A DNA stretch of 4,510 nucleotides from a virus (lineage: Duplodnaviria; Heunggongvirae; Uroviricota; Caudoviricetes): IMG/VR virus record IMGVR_UViG_2671180680_000008; one strand, given 5' to 3'. The position numbers and the translations under genes were made by a program. Shown piece after piece: positions 1 through 4,510 of this stretch (position 1 is the first letter of the stretch; each line of letters begins with the position of its first letter). The notes beneath the pieces are model-generated. The model was not told the DNA's origin. It searched no databases and was given only the letters and a program-made list of their open reading frames with translations.

Positions 1-66
1 CTGCATGACAAAGTCATCGGGCATTATCTGAACATAAAACACTATCAATAAGTTGGAGTCATTACC
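1..66 (+). mobile_element. insB: IS1 terminal fragment: 3' end of insB plus the 23-bp right inverted repeat (44-66)
   Basis: Bases 1-51 translate in frame 1 to LHDKVIGHYLNIKHYQ-stop, which I recognise as the InsB C-terminus. Bases 44-66 (atcaataagttggagtcattacc) are the reverse complement of the IS1 IRR ggtaatgactccaacttattgat. The IS1 body lies left of the window. Identity is from memory of the IS1 sequence, not a search. Confidence 0.93.
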
Positions 67-448
67 CGTTAAAACATCTGCAGATAATGACGTTGACTTG
101 GATACAGATGGATTCAGACAACTGAGGATATCGTGCCCATCCCCTTCTGCCAGCGGTGCGATTATATTGAGAAAAGCTTCTTATGAATTCGGCAAAAGTA
201 TAGGTGTATTTGATTTTGCAAACAATGCATCACCAGCGACGATGACATTTTTGATCCCAATATATAAAGATGATGATTTTGATTCAGATACTGTTGGTTT
301 TACATTTGCGTTCAAGATGCCAAGAGGCCAGTTTTTTGTAGATGTAAAAGAAAACGGGAATATCAGAGCTGGAGTTAATGTTAATGGCGAGTCGGGAGTG
401 ACCTACGAAAATTGCAAATTGAATATGAAAGATATTAATGATGATTAA
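67..448 (+). CDS. AT-rich hypothetical protein, probably a 3' gene remnant whose 5' end was cut by IS1; function unknown
   Basis: Frame 2 is open from base 38 (inside IS1) to TAA at 446-448, at least 127 codons. Hand counts give 37% GC for 181-240 and 28% for 241-300, so an open frame this long is unlikely by chance in such stop-rich sequence. A strong intrinsic terminator follows immediately. The ORF-track start at 53 is a TTG inside IS1 and is not credible; the first in-frame ATG is at 242 with no Shine-Dalgarno. I recognise no family motif. Confidence 0.5.
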
Positions 449-455
449 TATATAA

Positions 456-480
456 GCCGCCAGAAATTGGCGGTTTTTTT
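456..480 (+). terminator. Rho-independent terminator after the AT-rich ORF
   Basis: GC-rich stem ccgcca (457-462) pairs with tggcgg (468-473) around loop gaaat, followed by a 7-T run (474-480), starting 8 nt after the stop codon. Confidence 0.75.
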
Positions 481-485
481 ATAGT

Positions 486-494: not shown

Positions 495-1886
495 ATGGAC
501 TTACCTTCTTTACCTTCTCTTTCTTCACTCTTTTCTGCATCTTCAGGTATCAATTGGCGCGATAATCTTTACGACGCTTCATTTCGTGGCGTTCCGTTTT
601 CGGTGGAGAGCGACGAGGGTTCGTTCGGACGCCGCGTTCAGGTCCATGAATACCCAAACCGTGACAAACCGTACACGGAAGATCTCGGGCGTGCCACGCG
701 ACGGCTGACGATTAATGCGTATCTCGTTGGTGATGATTACGCAGAGCAGCGCGACAGGCTGATTACAGCGATTGAAACCGCCGGGCCGGGGACGCTGATC
801 CATCCGCAGTTCGGTGAAATGCAGGGCTGTATTGACGGGCAGGTGACCGTTTCTCACTCCGGCACTGAAGGCCGTATGTGCCGGGTTTCATTTCAGTTTG
901 TTGAGAGCGGGGAACTGTCATTTCCGGTCGCCGGAGCTGCAACCGCCAGAAAACTGGAGGAGTCGTCCGTATTCCTGGATGAGTTGATTGAAGACATGTT
1001 CGGCGATTTTGATCTCGCGGGAATACCGGACTTTATTCAGAACGATGTTATTGCCCGGACGACCGATATGCTGGGAACCGTTCAGACAGCTTTCAAAATG
1101 GTTAATTCGGCTGTTTCTGCCGGAGCGAGACTACTGCAGGGCGATTTATCCGTCATTCTGATGCCGCCGTCGGTTGCCAGTGATTTTGTGCATACGTTGC
1201 AGGATACCTGGCGGGCCGGAACCCGGCTGGTGGATAACACACAGGATCTGGTGCAGTCCATAACGACAATGTCCGGCATTACGCTGGACCCAGGACTGGC
1301 ACCGCGTGCGGTGTGGCCCACAGATTCCGCATCGGTTATCAGGCAAAAACAGCAGACAAACCTTGTGGCTGCTGTCATCCGGACGACGGCAATCAGCGAA
1401 GCCACAAGGGCGGTCACTTCACTGCCACAACCCGGAAGCCTGGTGAAAAATCAGCAGGCGGTTGTGGCTGTTGGTGGTTCCACTGAACGTCAGTCCGATA
1501 TTATTCACGTTTCTCATCCGGCACTTGACAGCGTGGCAGCCAGCACAGGACAGGATGAGAGAGCGCAACCACCCACGCGGGAAAATCTCACCATCATACG
1601 CAAATCGCTGAACGCGGCGATTGAACAGGAGCTCAGGCGTACGGCGGATGACAGGCTGTTTTTTCAGCTGACGTCATTACGTACAGAACTGAACCGGGAT
1701 ATTCAGGCGCGTCTGGTTCAGACGGAGGAAACCGCAGAGCGAACGCCAGCGGAAGTTCTGCCTGCGCTTGTTCTGGCTGCGTCATGGTACGACGATGCGT
1801 CCCGTGAAACTGATATCCTGGATCGAAATGCCATCTCTCATCCGGGCTTTGTTCCGGTCAGGGCATTAAGGGTACCCGTCAGATGA
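495..1886 (+). CDS. Phage DNA-circularisation protein (Mu N-like, 463 aa)
   Basis: Uninterrupted 463-codon ORF. The N-terminal region (WRDNLYDASFRGVPFSVESDEGSFGRRVQVHEYPNRDKPYTEDLGR) matches my recollection of the conserved DNA_circ_N-type motif of Mu N-family proteins. Position directly upstream of P/V/gp46/gp47 homologues fits Mu gene order. Not confirmed by search. Confidence 0.82.
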   Translation: MDLPSLPSLSSLFSASSGINWRDNLYDASFRGVPFSVESDEGSFGRRVQVHEYPNRDKPYTEDLGRATRRLTINAYLVGDDYAEQRDRLITAIETAGPGTLIHPQFGEMQGCIDGQVTVSHSGTEGRMCRVSFQFVESGELSFPVAGAATARKLEESSVFLDELIEDMFGDFDLAGIPDFIQNDVIARTTDMLGTVQTAFKMVNSAVSAGARLLQGDLSVILMPPSVASDFVHTLQDTWRAGTRLVDNTQDLVQSITTMSGITLDPGLAPRAVWPTDSASVIRQKQQTNLVAAVIRTTAISEATRAVTSLPQPGSLVKNQQAVVAVGGSTERQSDIIHVSHPALDSVAASTGQDERAQPPTRENLTIIRKSLNAAIEQELRRTADDRLFFQLTSLRTELNRDIQARLVQTEETAERTPAEVLPALVLAASWYDDASRETDILDRNAISHPGFVPVRALRVPVR

Positions 1887-2971
1887 ATGATACCGTTTTA
1901 CTTCGGGTTTCCGGTCGCGAATGGGGCGGCTGGACATCCGTCCGTATCAGTGCGGGCATTAACCGTATTGCCCGGGATTTTAATGTTGCCATTACCACCC
2001 GCTGGCCCGGAAGCCGGGATTATCAACCCCGGATAAAAAATGGTGAGCTGGTTGAAGTGCTTATCGGGGATGAGCCTGTGCTCACCGGATATGTGGAGGC
2101 ACTACCGCTTCGTTATGACGCCAGCAGCGTCAGCATGGGAATTGTCGGGCGAAGCAAAACAGCCGATCTGGTTGACTGCTCTGCTTTGCCACTCCAGCAG
2201 AGCGGAAAAAACCTGCTCAGAATAGTCAGTGAACTGGCTGCGCCATTTGGCATCACCGTTGTTGATGCTGGCGTGCCGCAGACAGCGGTGATTGATGCCC
2301 AGCCGGAACACGGCGAAACCGTTGCCGATTGTCTTAACCGGTTACTGGGGCAGGTTCAGACGCTGGCTTATGACGATGAATGCGGGCGACTGGTTCTGGG
2401 AAAACCCGGAACAGGTAAAGCGGCGACGGCGCTGGTGCTGGTGCTGGTGCTGGGAGAGAATATTCTTTCCTGTGACACGGAAAGAAGCATCAGAGAGCGG
2501 TTTTCTGAATATCAGGTCAGTGGGCAGCGCCCGGGCAACGACGATGATTTTGGTGAGGCCACCATTGCCGCAATACGTCAGACCATTCAGGACAGTGGCG
2601 TGACCCGTTATCGCCCTTTGTTGATTCAGCAGTCAGGCACAGCAACGACAGCAACCTGTAAGGCCCGTTGTGAATTTGAAGCGCGCCAACGGGCTGCGCT
2701 TACCCGTGAGACAACATATACGGTTCAGGGCTGGCGGCAGGGCAGTGGCGCGTTATGGCGTCCGGGGTTATCTGTCATCGTTTTCGACCCGCTGAATAAT
2801 TTTGATAATGATGAACTGGTGATCGCAGAAGTTACCTATAACCAGGACGACCGGGGCACGACGACTGAATTACGGGTTGGCCCGGCAGATGCTTATCTCC
2901 CCGAGCCTGTTACCGCCAGGAAGAAAAAAATGTTGAGGAGGATTTCTGATGAACGGGTTTTCTCTTCGTAA
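1883..2971 (+). CDS. Phage tail/baseplate hub protein (Mu P / P2 gpD-like, 362 aa)
   Basis: 362-codon ORF whose ATG (1883) overlaps the N stop codon (ATGA at 1883-1886), indicating translational coupling. Size and position between N-like and gp45-like genes match the Mu P (gp44) slot. Confidence 0.78.
   Translation: MNDTVLLRVSGREWGGWTSVRISAGINRIARDFNVAITTRWPGSRDYQPRIKNGELVEVLIGDEPVLTGYVEALPLRYDASSVSMGIVGRSKTADLVDCSALPLQQSGKNLLRIVSELAAPFGITVVDAGVPQTAVIDAQPEHGETVADCLNRLLGQVQTLAYDDECGRLVLGKPGTGKAATALVLVLVLGENILSCDTERSIRERFSEYQVSGQRPGNDDDFGEATIAAIRQTIQDSGVTRYRPLLIQQSGTATTATCKARCEFEARQRAALTRETTYTVQGWRQGSGALWRPGLSVIVFDPLNNFDNDELVIAEVTYNQDDRGTTTELRVGPADAYLPEPVTARKKKMLRRISDERVFSS
2432..2452 (+). repeat. 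In-frame tandem hexamer (CTGGTG) x3.5 inside the P-like gene, encoding LVLVLVL
   Basis: Direct read: ctg gtg ctg gtg ctg gtg ctg at 2432-2452, in the P reading frame (protein segment ATALVLVLVLGEN). Confidence 0.9.
2935..2941 (+). promoter_or_regulatory. Shine-Dalgarno (GAGGAGG) for the gp45/V-like gene, embedded in the 3' end of the P-like gene
   Basis: GAGGAGG lies 7 nt upstream of ATG 2949, which is 23 nt before the P stop at 2969-2971. Confidence 0.6.
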
Positions 2972-3249
2972 TCTGATTTCCCGGGCTGTCATCACGGCGG
3001 TGGATTCCGCCAGAAAGTGTCAGTCTGTAGGGTTGAAAATGATAGCCGGAGATCAGAAACAACACGTTGAGCACCTTGAACCTTATGGTTTTACATCTGC
3101 CGCACAGAACGGTGCTGAGGGCGTTGCTTTATTTCCGGCGGGCGATCGTTCTCATGGTGTGGTTGTGGTCGTGGCTGACAGACGTTACCGGCTGAAAGGA
3201 CTGAAACGTGGGGAAGTGGCGCTTTATGACGATCTGGGACAGTCCGTTG
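2949..3249 (+). CDS. Baseplate spike / assembly protein V (Mu gp45-like); 5' portion only, 3' end lost in the N-gap
   Basis: About 100 codons are visible. The segment HVEHLEPYGFTSAAQNGAEGVALFPAGDRSHGVVVVVADRRYRLKGLKRGEVALYDDLG resembles the conserved core of gp45/gpV spike proteins as I recall them. Strong RBS; overlaps the P 3' end. The C-terminus lies in the unresolved gap. Confidence 0.72.
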
Positions 3250-3489
3250 NNNNNNNNNNNNNNNNNNNNNNNNNNNNNNNNNNNNNNNNNNNNNNNNNNN
3301 NNNNNNNNNNNNNNNNNNNNNNNNNNNNNNNNNNNNNNNNNNNNNNNNNNNNNNNNNNNNNNNNNNNNNNNNNNNNNNNNNNNNNNNNNNNNNNNNNNNN
3401 NNNNNNNNNNNNNNNNNNNNNNNNNNNNNNNNNNNNNNNNNNNNNNNNNNNNNNNNNNNNNNNNNNNNNNNNNNNNNNNNNNNNNNNNN
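3250..3489. other. Assembly gap: 240 N
   Basis: Direct read of an uninterrupted n run. True length is unknown, so the frame relationship across it cannot be trusted. Confidence 0.99.
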
Positions 3490-3858
3490 TCGATCGACCT
3501 TCTGACGCGTGCTGTGATTATTTCGCTTTTTACATGGCGGCGTGCCGGGCGTGATGATGCACCACGGATATTTGGATGGTGGGGGGATACCTGGCCTGCG
3601 GTTCAGAATGATCGCACGGGGTCGCGTTTGTATCTGTTGCGACGCAGCAAGCTGACAAATAAAACCCCGCAGCTTGCCAGAGATTATGTCCGTGAGGCGC
3701 TGGCGTGGATGGTGGAGGATGGTGTTGCTTCCCGTCTTGATATTAACGCTGTCCGGACCGGGACAGACTCGCTGGCACTTGCCATTACCATTTACCAGCG
3801 TGACGGCAATATTCACAACATTATTTTTGATGATATCTGGAGTGAACTGAATGGCTGA
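3490..3858 (+). CDS. Baseplate protein gp46-like (Mu gp46 family); 3' portion only, 5' end in the N-gap
   Basis: 123 codons are open in frame 1 from the gap edge to TGA 3856-3858. It contains FGWWGD and GSRLYLLRRSKLT, motifs I associate with the Phage_GP46 family. The stop overlaps the next gene's start (ATGGCTGA). Confidence 0.75.
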   Translation, partial: SIDLLTRAVIISLFTWRRAGRDDAPRIFGWWGDTWPAVQNDRTGSRLYLLRRSKLTNKTPQLARDYVREALAWMVEDGVASRLDINAVRTGTDSLALAITIYQRDGNIHNIIFDDIWSELNG

Positions 3859-4444
3859 CAGTCAGTTTTATCGCCCCGGCCTCCCGCAACTTATTTCTAT
3901 GATCCGGAGCGATTTATTAACCCGCTTTGAGCAGGATACGCTGCTTCGTCGTATGGATGCGGAAGTGTATGCCCGTGTACAGGCTGCAGCCGTACACACG
4001 TTGTACGGGTATATCGATTATCTTGCCAGAAATCTGTTACCGGACGTGTGTGATGAAGACTGGCTGTACCGGCACGCCAGAATCAAACGCTGCCCGCGAA
4101 AAGAAGCGGTGGCAGCCCGGGGATTTGTGCGCTGGGATGGCGTAGAGGGGACGCCGGTATTGCCAGCGGGAACGCAGATCCAGCGTGATAATCAGGTGAC
4201 CTTTACCACGACGGCGACGGTGACCGCAGCCGATGGTCTTCTCCGGGTGCCTGTTGTGGCAGACGAACCGGGATCGGCGGGGAATACGGATGATGGTATT
4301 GCCATGCAACTGGGAACACCCGTCAGTGGTCTGCCGTCCACAGGGTACGCTGACACCATTACAGACGGTGAAGATATTGAAAATCTGGAAATATGGCGTG
4401 CCCGCGTTATGGAACGTTATTACTACATTCCACAGGGGGGCGCA
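3851..4444 (+). pseudogene. Baseplate J-like protein (Mu gp47-like), cut after about 198 codons by the IS1 insertion
   Basis: ATG at 3851 overlaps the gp46 stop. Frame 2 is open from 3851 to the window end, reading into the IS1 inverted repeat at 4445. It is not in the ORF track because no stop occurs in the window. Family call rests on position after gp46 and general similarity to baseplate-J N-terminal regions, so it is less certain than the truncation itself. Confidence 0.72.
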
Positions 4445-4510
4445 GGTAATGACTCCAACTTATTGATAGTGTTTTATGTTCAGATAATGCCCGATGACTT
4501 TGTCATGCAG
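4445..4510 (-). mobile_element. insB: IS1 terminal fragment (IRR at 4445-4467 plus insB 3' end on the minus strand), inverted relative to the left copy
   Basis: Bases 4445-4510 are the exact reverse complement of bases 1-66, checked by eye base by base. They start with ggtaatgactccaacttattgat, the IS1 IRR. The IS1 body lies right of the window. Confidence 0.93.

Follow-up and report, generated by a model that had tools for sequence, protein, structure and literature searches.

The window, by which we mean the whole 4,510-nt stretch of DNA analysed here, is 100% identical to a draft contig (L013) and is bounded by a perfect 66-nt inverted repeat, the arms of which (1-66 and 4445-4510) we take to be the transposase-3' ends of two IS1 copies; gene fragments matching Pfam DDE_Tnp_IS1 are found at both ends of L013. 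Between these ends lies part of a Mu-type tail module (Table 1), comprising a DNA-circularization gene, a baseplate hub gene, gp45-like and gp46-like genes broken by 240 consecutive Ns, and the 5' part of a baseplate J gene. Upstream of these, and abutting the left IS1 end, is an AT-rich open reading frame followed by an intrinsic terminator.

Table 1. Features of the 4,510-nt window, in order of position
Feature	Coordinates	Strand	Remarks
Left IS1 terminus	1..66	+	End of transposase gene (stop TAA 48-50) and terminal inverted repeat; transposase oriented towards the AT-rich ORF
Artefactual 5' extension of the open frame inside IS1	38..67	+	TTG at 53 is the start chosen by ORF finders; not native gene
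IS1 9-bp target-site duplication CGTTAAAAC, downstream copy	67..75	+	Same 9 bp at both IS1 ends in L023 (5223-5231, 6000-6008)
Cargo gene 3' remnant (codons 35-160 and stop), pseudogene fragment	68..448	+	100% identity to L001 12001-12382
Rho-independent terminator of the cargo cassette	454..480	+	Stem 454-476, T-run up to 480
DNA-circularization tail gene (Mu gp43/N-like)	495..1886	+	Pfam DNA_circ_N, E = 3e-36; RefSeq annotation in L001-L003; downstream edge of the cargo slot
Baseplate hub gene (Mu gp44/P-like)	1883..2971	+	12-nt repeat expansion and poly-A frameshift relative to the intact prophage
Baseplate J/gp47 gene, 5' part	3851..4444	+	Cut by the second IS1
Right IS1 terminus, 66 nt	4445..4510	-	Inverted relative to the left copy; simple insertion

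An in-frame TAA at 35-37 precedes the AT-rich frame, which stays open from position 38 as far as a TAA at 446-448. Native sequence departs from IS1 at 66/67; positions 38-66 are IS1, and the native part of the frame (68-445) comprises 126 codons that correspond to V35-D160 of the intact protein described below. The original prediction of a frame of at least 127 codons, placed at 38-481, was right about the open frame itself. The sole potential start, a TTG at 53, also falls within the IS1 end, in keeping with the earlier view that the window offers no credible start codon. The GC content of 67-448 is 0.374, as against 0.544 for 495-3249 and 0.545 for 3490-4444; in 200-nt windows it is 0.365-0.41 in the AT-rich ORF versus 0.51-0.60 in the tail genes, and in 60-nt windows it spans 0.25 to 0.55. 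The 28-37% GC first given for the frame was slightly low overall, but its AT-richness relative to the tail genes (0.374 versus 0.54) stands, and the acidic C-terminus (KDINDD) had been read correctly. The structure closing the ORF is indeed a textbook intrinsic terminator: a stem of 10 pairs, five of them G-C, is followed by a T-run, with a minimum free energy of -13.6 kcal/mol (z = -4.8) that none of 200 shuffles matched.

The 428 bases following the IS1 end have matches of 97-100% identity in 11 of 5426 complete Escherichia coli genomes, where they belong to an intact gene of 160 codons (483 nt) annotated as 'hypothetical protein'. The intact gene was found separately, among species-representative genomes, in one complete Shigella flexneri chromosome. 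Its product begins with MIKPFLMTVAILTSCCAQAKILTNEEIVSRFISN and continues into the sequence encoded in the window, from which a 67-nt spacer and the first 34 codons are missing. In every case examined, the gene order is tape measure, 160-aa gene, DNA circularization. The prophages that carry it are SfV/e14-like, combining an HK97-type head module with a Mu-type contractile tail module; they are otherwise complete and are integrated at different chromosomal sites.

This gene is not a constant part of the tail operon. A 1.7-kb query covering the tape-measure 3' end, the gene and the 5' end of the DNA-circularization gene matches 50 E. coli genomes, of which only 11 have the middle part, the two flanks abutting in the others. 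Where occupied sites span about 596 nt, a gap of just 15 nt is seen in at least 29 related E. coli prophages and in 19 IMG/VR contigs, and two annotated empty sites read simply as tape-measure stop, 15 nt and DNA-circularization start. When gaps were counted among the IMG/VR contigs with a closely related DNA-circularization gene, the site was found empty in 19 loci with a 15-nt gap and in three more divergent loci with a gap of 8-11 nt. The cargo gene accounts for a gap of about 596 nt in six loci, an unrelated gene fills a 561-nt gap in one (L054), and in one further locus (L050, the same contig as L023 below) the gene is split by IS1 within a gap of 1373 nt (596 + 768 + 9). The gene occurs with two different C-terminal alleles of the tape measure, and each of these alleles also occurs without it. 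The cargo is an optional AT-rich cassette of ~580 bp, consisting of a spacer, the gene and an intrinsic terminator, that fits exactly into the gap separating the tape-measure stop from the DNA-circularization start. That most close relatives lack it agrees with independence from tail assembly.

The exact junction of IS1 with the ORF has no match in the species-representative genomes, and its context came from an IMG/VR contig (L023, from a 61.7-kb record), in which a complete 768-bp IS1 at 5232-5999 produces the same truncation as the IS1 end that cuts the cargo gene at position 66/67 of the window. In a blastn comparison with the intact prophage L001, positions 8054-12009 of the latter lie directly upstream of this IS1 and positions 12001-16411 directly downstream; the 9-bp overlap of the L001 coordinates across the element is the target-site duplication CGTTAAAAC, seen at both L023 junctions. 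Both terminal repeats, the 9-bp duplication and the flanks colinear with L001 mark a simple transposition. The second IS1, which interrupts the baseplate J gene, likewise proves to be a simple insertion in L023, its flanks being colinear. Upstream of the first element the tape-measure gene is intact, and it lies, together with the first 37 codons of the cargo gene, directly across from the remnant: this 5' fragment reads M1-T37, followed by VMLPTY and a stop within IS1.

These arrangements bear out the leading interpretation first given of the ORF wherever it could be checked. The proposal that IS1 removed or separated the 5' part of the gene is confirmed by M1-T37 and the 9-bp duplication directly across the left IS1 in L023, which is where the original prediction had suggested looking for the missing piece. 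Its picture of a foreign, moron-like cargo with its own terminator likewise agrees with the presence or absence of the gene at one precise site among near-identical prophages. The supposition that the ORF stands in the place of the tape measure does not hold, as the tape measure is intact upstream and is followed by the ORF, an additional gene ahead of the DNA-circularization gene. Neither does the alternative that an unrelated chromosomal gene was set beside the tail genes by IS1-mediated rearrangement: although IS1 ends in inverted orientation flank the window on both sides, and such pairs can give rise to inversions and deletions, this reading is refuted because both L023 copies are simple insertions with target duplications, across which the prophage is colinear, and IS1-free prophages have the same gene order, with the same gene immediately upstream of the DNA-circularization gene, leaving it a negligible probability.

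The exact 131-aa ORF formed by fusion with IS1 is present on at least 21 draft contigs of 4.6-5 kb with IS1 at start and end; both this ORF and the 37-aa 5' fragment of the cargo gene (P0034) have annotated entries in Shigella sonnei. A 43-aa cluster member (P0033), considered as the 5' fragment, was rejected, being a C-terminal piece read from an internal start. The left IS1 transposase gene points at the remnant, and read-through transcription is conceivable. The remnant itself has neither a native start nor a ribosome-binding site, and expression from the IS1 junction would at best yield a cytoplasmic product without a signal peptide. The window copy therefore cannot give a functional product, since these initiation signals are absent and whatever was made would be without the export signal that the two-cysteine protein requires. 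Decay extends to the whole prophage, as the frameshift in the hub gene and the IS1 copy in the baseplate J gene show; the window is a recurrent IS1-bounded piece of this decaying S. sonnei prophage. Hence, the AT-rich ORF is very probably the 3' four-fifths of an exported accessory (moron-like) prophage gene that was cut by IS1 in S. sonnei, a dead copy. In the S. sonnei lineage that gave rise to the window, IS1 transposed into codons 34-37 with duplication of 9 bp, so that one side kept the spacer, the start codon and the signal peptide (37 codons) and the other kept codons 35-160 and the terminator.

The full-length protein matches PHROG 5586, a family labelled as of unknown function, with E = 9.7e-89 over residues 1-160 of 161 profile positions; only residues 35-160 of this match are held by the window copy. 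The ORF is thus not the orphan it was first taken for, but belongs to a small family that recurs at the same position. Neither single-sequence queries nor a 13-member profile led to an assignment in Pfam, NCBIfam, PADLOC or the PDB sequences; in particular, none of the 13 members had a Pfam match at E <= 10, and none of the PADLOC-DB v2 defence-protein HMMs (0 families) was hit at E <= 1. Relatives amount to only about 20 clusters, none of them with an annotated member, in a collection of 5.8 billion proteins searched with both the single sequence and the profile, and in an exhaustive HMMER search of 1.84 billion representatives. Those with a named source come from Escherichia/Shigella, Yersinia and Pantoea, the others from sequencing-run and metagenome assemblies. 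The family is small and limited to Enterobacterales, and vB_EcoM-720R4 is the only deposited phage with a member. No description of the cargo gene was found in literature searches on the gene accessions, the PHROG identifier, phage 720R4, and morons in combination with tail genes.

Across the family, the ratio of nonsynonymous to synonymous substitution (dN/dS) between the E. coli allele and the Yersinia enterocolitica allele (74% identity) is 0.09, rising to 0.18 for the vB_EcoM-720R4 allele (about 50% identity) and 0.34 for a 40%-identical allele; these values indicate that PHROG 5586 is under purifying selection. GC3 is 0.26-0.31 across all phage-borne alleles. A chance ORF in non-coding AT-rich spacer DNA, which the failure of Pfam and NCBIfam to give a family might have favoured, is already refuted and retains virtually no probability: 126 codons would stay open in one frame at the composition of the ORF with a chance of only ~5e-5, the PHROG 5586 match has a rounded E of 1e-88, dN/dS stays at 0.09-0.34 across alleles as low as 40% in identity, and the structure model is confident.

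Inspection of the alignments for Sec export signals revealed an N-terminal signal peptide in every full-length member, most of them ending in AxA|K, and the intact protein is very probably exported via Sec. Bacterial lipoboxes follow the rule [LVI][ASTVI][GAS]C (PROSITE PS51257) after a short basic and hydrophobic N-terminus, with the Cys at 15-35. The E. coli/Shigella allele possesses an ILTS-C15 lipobox (MIKPFLMTVAILTS-C15), which fits this rule, as well as an AQA|K signal-peptidase I site, the latter in register with the AxA|K of the other members, which have no such Cys. As the lipobox is confined to this one clade, localisation is uncertain, and lipidation of the E. coli/Shigella allele is likewise an uncertain prediction. 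The Yersinia allele seems to be frameshifted in its signal peptide. The whole lipobox and signal-peptide region has been lost from the window copy.

Two cysteines, C57 and C150, are conserved in all complete members, a pair that fits a disulfide in an extracytoplasmic protein. AlphaFold2, run on a 13-sequence alignment, returned a model with a pLDDT of 83.7 and a pTM of 0.77, in which a helix (24-41) is followed by eight β-strands. The predicted fold would be an N-terminal helix packed on an eight-stranded up-and-down β-barrel, with the C57-C150 disulfide probably closing it. Foldseek comparisons with the PDB and BFVD gave nothing at E < 0.01; the modelled barrel is without a specific structural or sequence relative. 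Membership in the PliC/MliC family, prompted by a conserved SASG string and the two cysteines, was rejected, with an hhalign probability of 0.06% against validated MliC/PliC sequences and no family member touching the Pfam MliC family (PF09864).

The genomic context of the family is largely uniform. Six divergent alleles (P0001, P0002, P0003/720R4, P0011, P0012 and P0014) all lie in Mu-type tail modules, with the tape-measure gene on one side and the DNA-circularization gene on the other; the gene is always oriented with the tail operon. In the locus L048, the gene (P0017) follows a tape-measure gene and a gene for a HIRAN-domain protein. Two of the most distant members, P0019 and P0021, adjoin parA and a cI-like repressor gene on phage-plasmid-like contigs, P0019 also adjoining the IncFII repA and pemIK. 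As these two stand beside parA and the repressor rather than tail genes, the protein is not mechanically tied to tail assembly. The slot itself accepts other cargo: in L054 it is occupied by an unrelated AT-rich gene for a 151-aa protein, which has a clear lipoprotein signal (LAGC|D) and could be assigned to no family; the gene ends in a terminator nearly identical to that of the window. A terminator directly precedes the DNA-circularization start in all five cassette types examined. Given this lipoprotein gene and the terminators following all five types, the slot behaves as an exchange point for small exported-protein cassettes.

The Hendrix/Juhala definition of morons, as restated in PMC3594210, supplied the criteria against which the cassette was compared. 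It is extra DNA absent at the same site from close relatives (about 596 versus 15 nt), it deviates in base composition (GC 0.37 versus 0.54; GC3 about 0.30), and it possesses its own terminator (454-480), as do other cassette types. By virtue of this precise site, deviant composition and terminator, it displays three of the four sequence hallmarks of a moron. As for the fourth, a promoter of its own through which the repressed prophage could express it, the spacer is wholly absent from the window, and consensus scans of the 67-nt spacer of intact cassettes of the window type, and of the 720R4-type and P0011-type spacers, found no sigma-70-like site. Scans of four cassette types yielded nothing above shuffle expectation; these scans covered consensus sites in the spacer, and would miss a promoter that is weak, departs from the consensus or lies within the 3' end of the tape-measure gene. 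In another locus (L084) the upstream spacer is only 16 nt long, so that the gene may be transcribed merely as part of the late tail operon and not in the lysogen.

What the intact protein does can be approached through its predicted location. In a lysogen or an infected cell, its site of action would be the periplasm or the outer membrane, and our tentative best guess, drawn by analogy with other phage envelope proteins such as HK97 gp15, Cor and Llp, is a possible envelope-level role in superinfection exclusion or receptor masking. Bound to a receptor, or to the tail tip or tape-measure complex of an arriving phage, the protein would block adsorption or DNA entry by competitors and so protect the lysogen or infected cell. 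While late antitermination is off, the terminator would restrict transcription of the cassette. One may go further and regard the junction of the tape-measure and DNA-circularization genes as a dedicated hotspot for terminator-bearing envelope-protein cassettes, and PHROG 5586 as a new superinfection-exclusion family, though we consider this extension rather doubtful. The swapped cargo would then include the PHROG 5586 barrels, the LAGC|D lipoprotein of L054 and the HIRAN-plus-barrel pair of L048, and the PHROG 5586 protein, periplasmic or at the outer membrane, would intercept contractile-tailed phages at their incoming tail tip or tape-measure complex.

In place of a role in the lysogen, the intact protein could be a product of the late lytic cycle, co-transcribed with the tail operon and exported late, for receptor masking on the dying cell or for envelope events. 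T5 Llp, which masks receptors on the dying cell and so keeps progeny from being lost to debris, offers a precedent of this kind. The lack of any promoter-like site upstream of the gene in three cassette types, the 16-nt spacer of L084 and the constant orientation with the tail operon all speak for such a product. However, a strong terminator in mid-operon makes sense only if some transcription is not antiterminated, and two family members are found on phage-plasmid-like elements, where they lie in the maintenance/lysogeny region and well away from tail genes; on balance, a purely late product seems unlikely. A host-fitness or virulence factor of the envelope, of the λ Bor/Lom type and concerned with serum resistance, adhesion or stress tolerance rather than with phage susceptibility, would agree with a small exported protein on prophages of enteric pathogens (STEC, Shigella and Y. 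enterocolitica), and morons with such roles are documented (PMC3594210). We consider it quite unlikely here, since the gene is rare (11 of 5426 complete E. coli genomes) and also occurs in Pantoea and on environmental and metagenome contigs, is repeatedly inactivated in Shigella, and encodes a protein without similarity to Bor, Lom or any Pfam family. Finally, a divergent periplasmic lysozyme inhibitor of the PliC/MliC type or another calycin-like ligand- or enzyme-binding barrel, for example one neutralising tail-associated or host lysozymes, is very improbable, although PliC/MliC proteins (PF09864; PDB 2f09, 3f6z, 3oe3 and 4mir) share with the predicted protein a periplasmic or lipid-anchored eight-stranded β-barrel, a disulfide and an S-x-S-G loop motif.

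The window ORF itself matters little, being a dead fragment in a decaying S. sonnei prophage, and its explanation is ordinary: it is the IS1-split pseudogene of an uncharacterised prophage cargo gene, which accounts for the one element that the first reading of the window had left unplaced. The intact gene, for its part, defines a small, uncharacterised family of putatively exported β-barrel proteins, which Mu-type tail modules carry as optional cargo at a single, precise site. For phage-exclusion biology, the family and the slot in which it is exchanged offer a modest lead; they do not amount to a new kind of system. Because envelope-located prophage cargo has repeatedly been found to control phage entry or the host surface, the family is a reasonable candidate for an exclusion screen.

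Set beside known systems, the disruption resembles other IS1-disrupted Shigella prophage remnants without any unusual feature: simple insertions with 9-bp duplications inside prophage genes are a common pattern, and draft assemblies break at every IS1 copy, as here. The closest comparisons for the intact protein are small phage-encoded envelope proteins. Cor (of phi80, N15 and HK022) and T5 Llp are, like the cargo protein, small exported phage (lipo)proteins encoded beside tail or receptor-binding genes. Both are receptor-blocking lipoproteins that act at the outer membrane, and both are much smaller than the 160-aa cargo protein. No kinship in sequence with either was detected: the PHROG 5586 family gave no match to the Cor PHROG, and in the alternative cargo of L054 only the signal peptide matches it, weakly (E = 0.25). 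The gene 15 moron of HK97 and its superinfection exclusion protein gp15 were reportedly described by Juhala et al. in 2000 and Cumby et al. in 2012. This tail-operon moron adjoins the tape-measure gene and excludes superinfecting phages (PMC3594210). HK97 gp15 differs in being a YebO-like inner-membrane protein, encoded upstream of the tape measure, with a demonstrated promoter and exclusion phenotype, whereas the cargo described here would be a 160-aa signal-peptide-bearing β-barrel without a Pfam match, encoded downstream of the tape measure and without a detectable promoter. The two nevertheless share an extra gene in the tail operon beside the tape measure, its absence from close relatives, deviant GC content, a terminator of its own, and a small product targeted to the envelope.

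The junction between the tape-measure and DNA-circularization genes accommodates cargo that is unrelated to the gene split in the window. In the contig IMGVR_UViG_2189573020_000003 (1920-2375) the slot is occupied by an AT-rich gene specifying a protein of 151 aa, which found no family match in Pfam or PHROG and bears a clear lipoprotein signal (MKKALIILSCLFCLAGC|D); from this signal, the protein is probably retained in the inner membrane. The terminator of this gene, AAACCGCCAGAATCGGCGGTTTTTTT, is nearly identical to that of the window. In a metagenome contig (L048, 2387-3423), two genes come after the tape-measure gene, one with a HIRAN domain and one that is a 28%-identical member of the PHROG 5586 cargo family, which suggests stacked cargo in one slot.

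Upstream of the 720R4-type allele in IMGVR_UViG_2778261416_000006 (4700-6000), the usual 3' end of the tape-measure gene is replaced by a different sequence with three short ORFs, and homology starts again about 50 nt upstream of the cargo start. This point may be the left boundary of a mobile cassette or, alternatively, may reflect a rearrangement. The allele of a Yersinia enterocolitica prophage (L015, 7970-8010) displays an apparent 1-nt frameshift in its signal-peptide region; since adding one base would allow the upstream ATGAAAAAACCTATCTACTTGTGTTT to continue the signal peptide, this copy may likewise be inactive, or may have been mis-sequenced.

FDAARGOS_944, whose intact gene is 100% identical, is labeled E. 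coli; ISEc60 has inserted into the portal gene and the sheath gene of its prophage. Just past the prophage tail-fibre genes lies an ipaH effector gene with a frameshift (21275-22916 of that locus), and the strain may be Shigella/EIEC-like. Relative to the intact prophage, the window differs at two points in the baseplate hub gene (see table), the second of which frameshifts the last codons and extends the ORF by 22 nt into the next gene.

Changes in the tail genes of the window
Feature	Window position	Gene
GCTGGT-repeat expansion of 12 nt, adding LVLV	2431-2442	baseplate hub (gp44/P-like), vs intact prophage
1-nt poly-A deletion (A7 vs A8)	2924-2930	baseplate hub (gp44/P-like), vs intact prophage
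Cut by second IS1	3851-4510	baseplate J/gp47

The two IS1 copies of the window are mutually inverted, with the transposase 3' ends pointing inward; despite this arrangement, the intervening segment keeps the orientation of the intact prophage. In a longer contig with the same truncation (L023), the second IS1 likewise went in by simple insertion and duplicated its target. The 240 N at 3250-3489, a stretch in which the gp45-like gene ends and the gp46-like gene begins, stand for 280 real bases in an otherwise 100% identical contig (L009); hence, window coordinates past the run are 40 short of the true spacing. ORFs crossing the run are artefacts.

P0019 (GC 0.55) and the Pantoea protein P0021, which are the most distant members of the family, lie outside tail modules (L047, 2919-3413, and L083, 1-452). 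Both adjoin parA and a cI-like repressor gene on phage-plasmid-like contigs, with P0019 additionally adjoining IncFII repA and pemIK.
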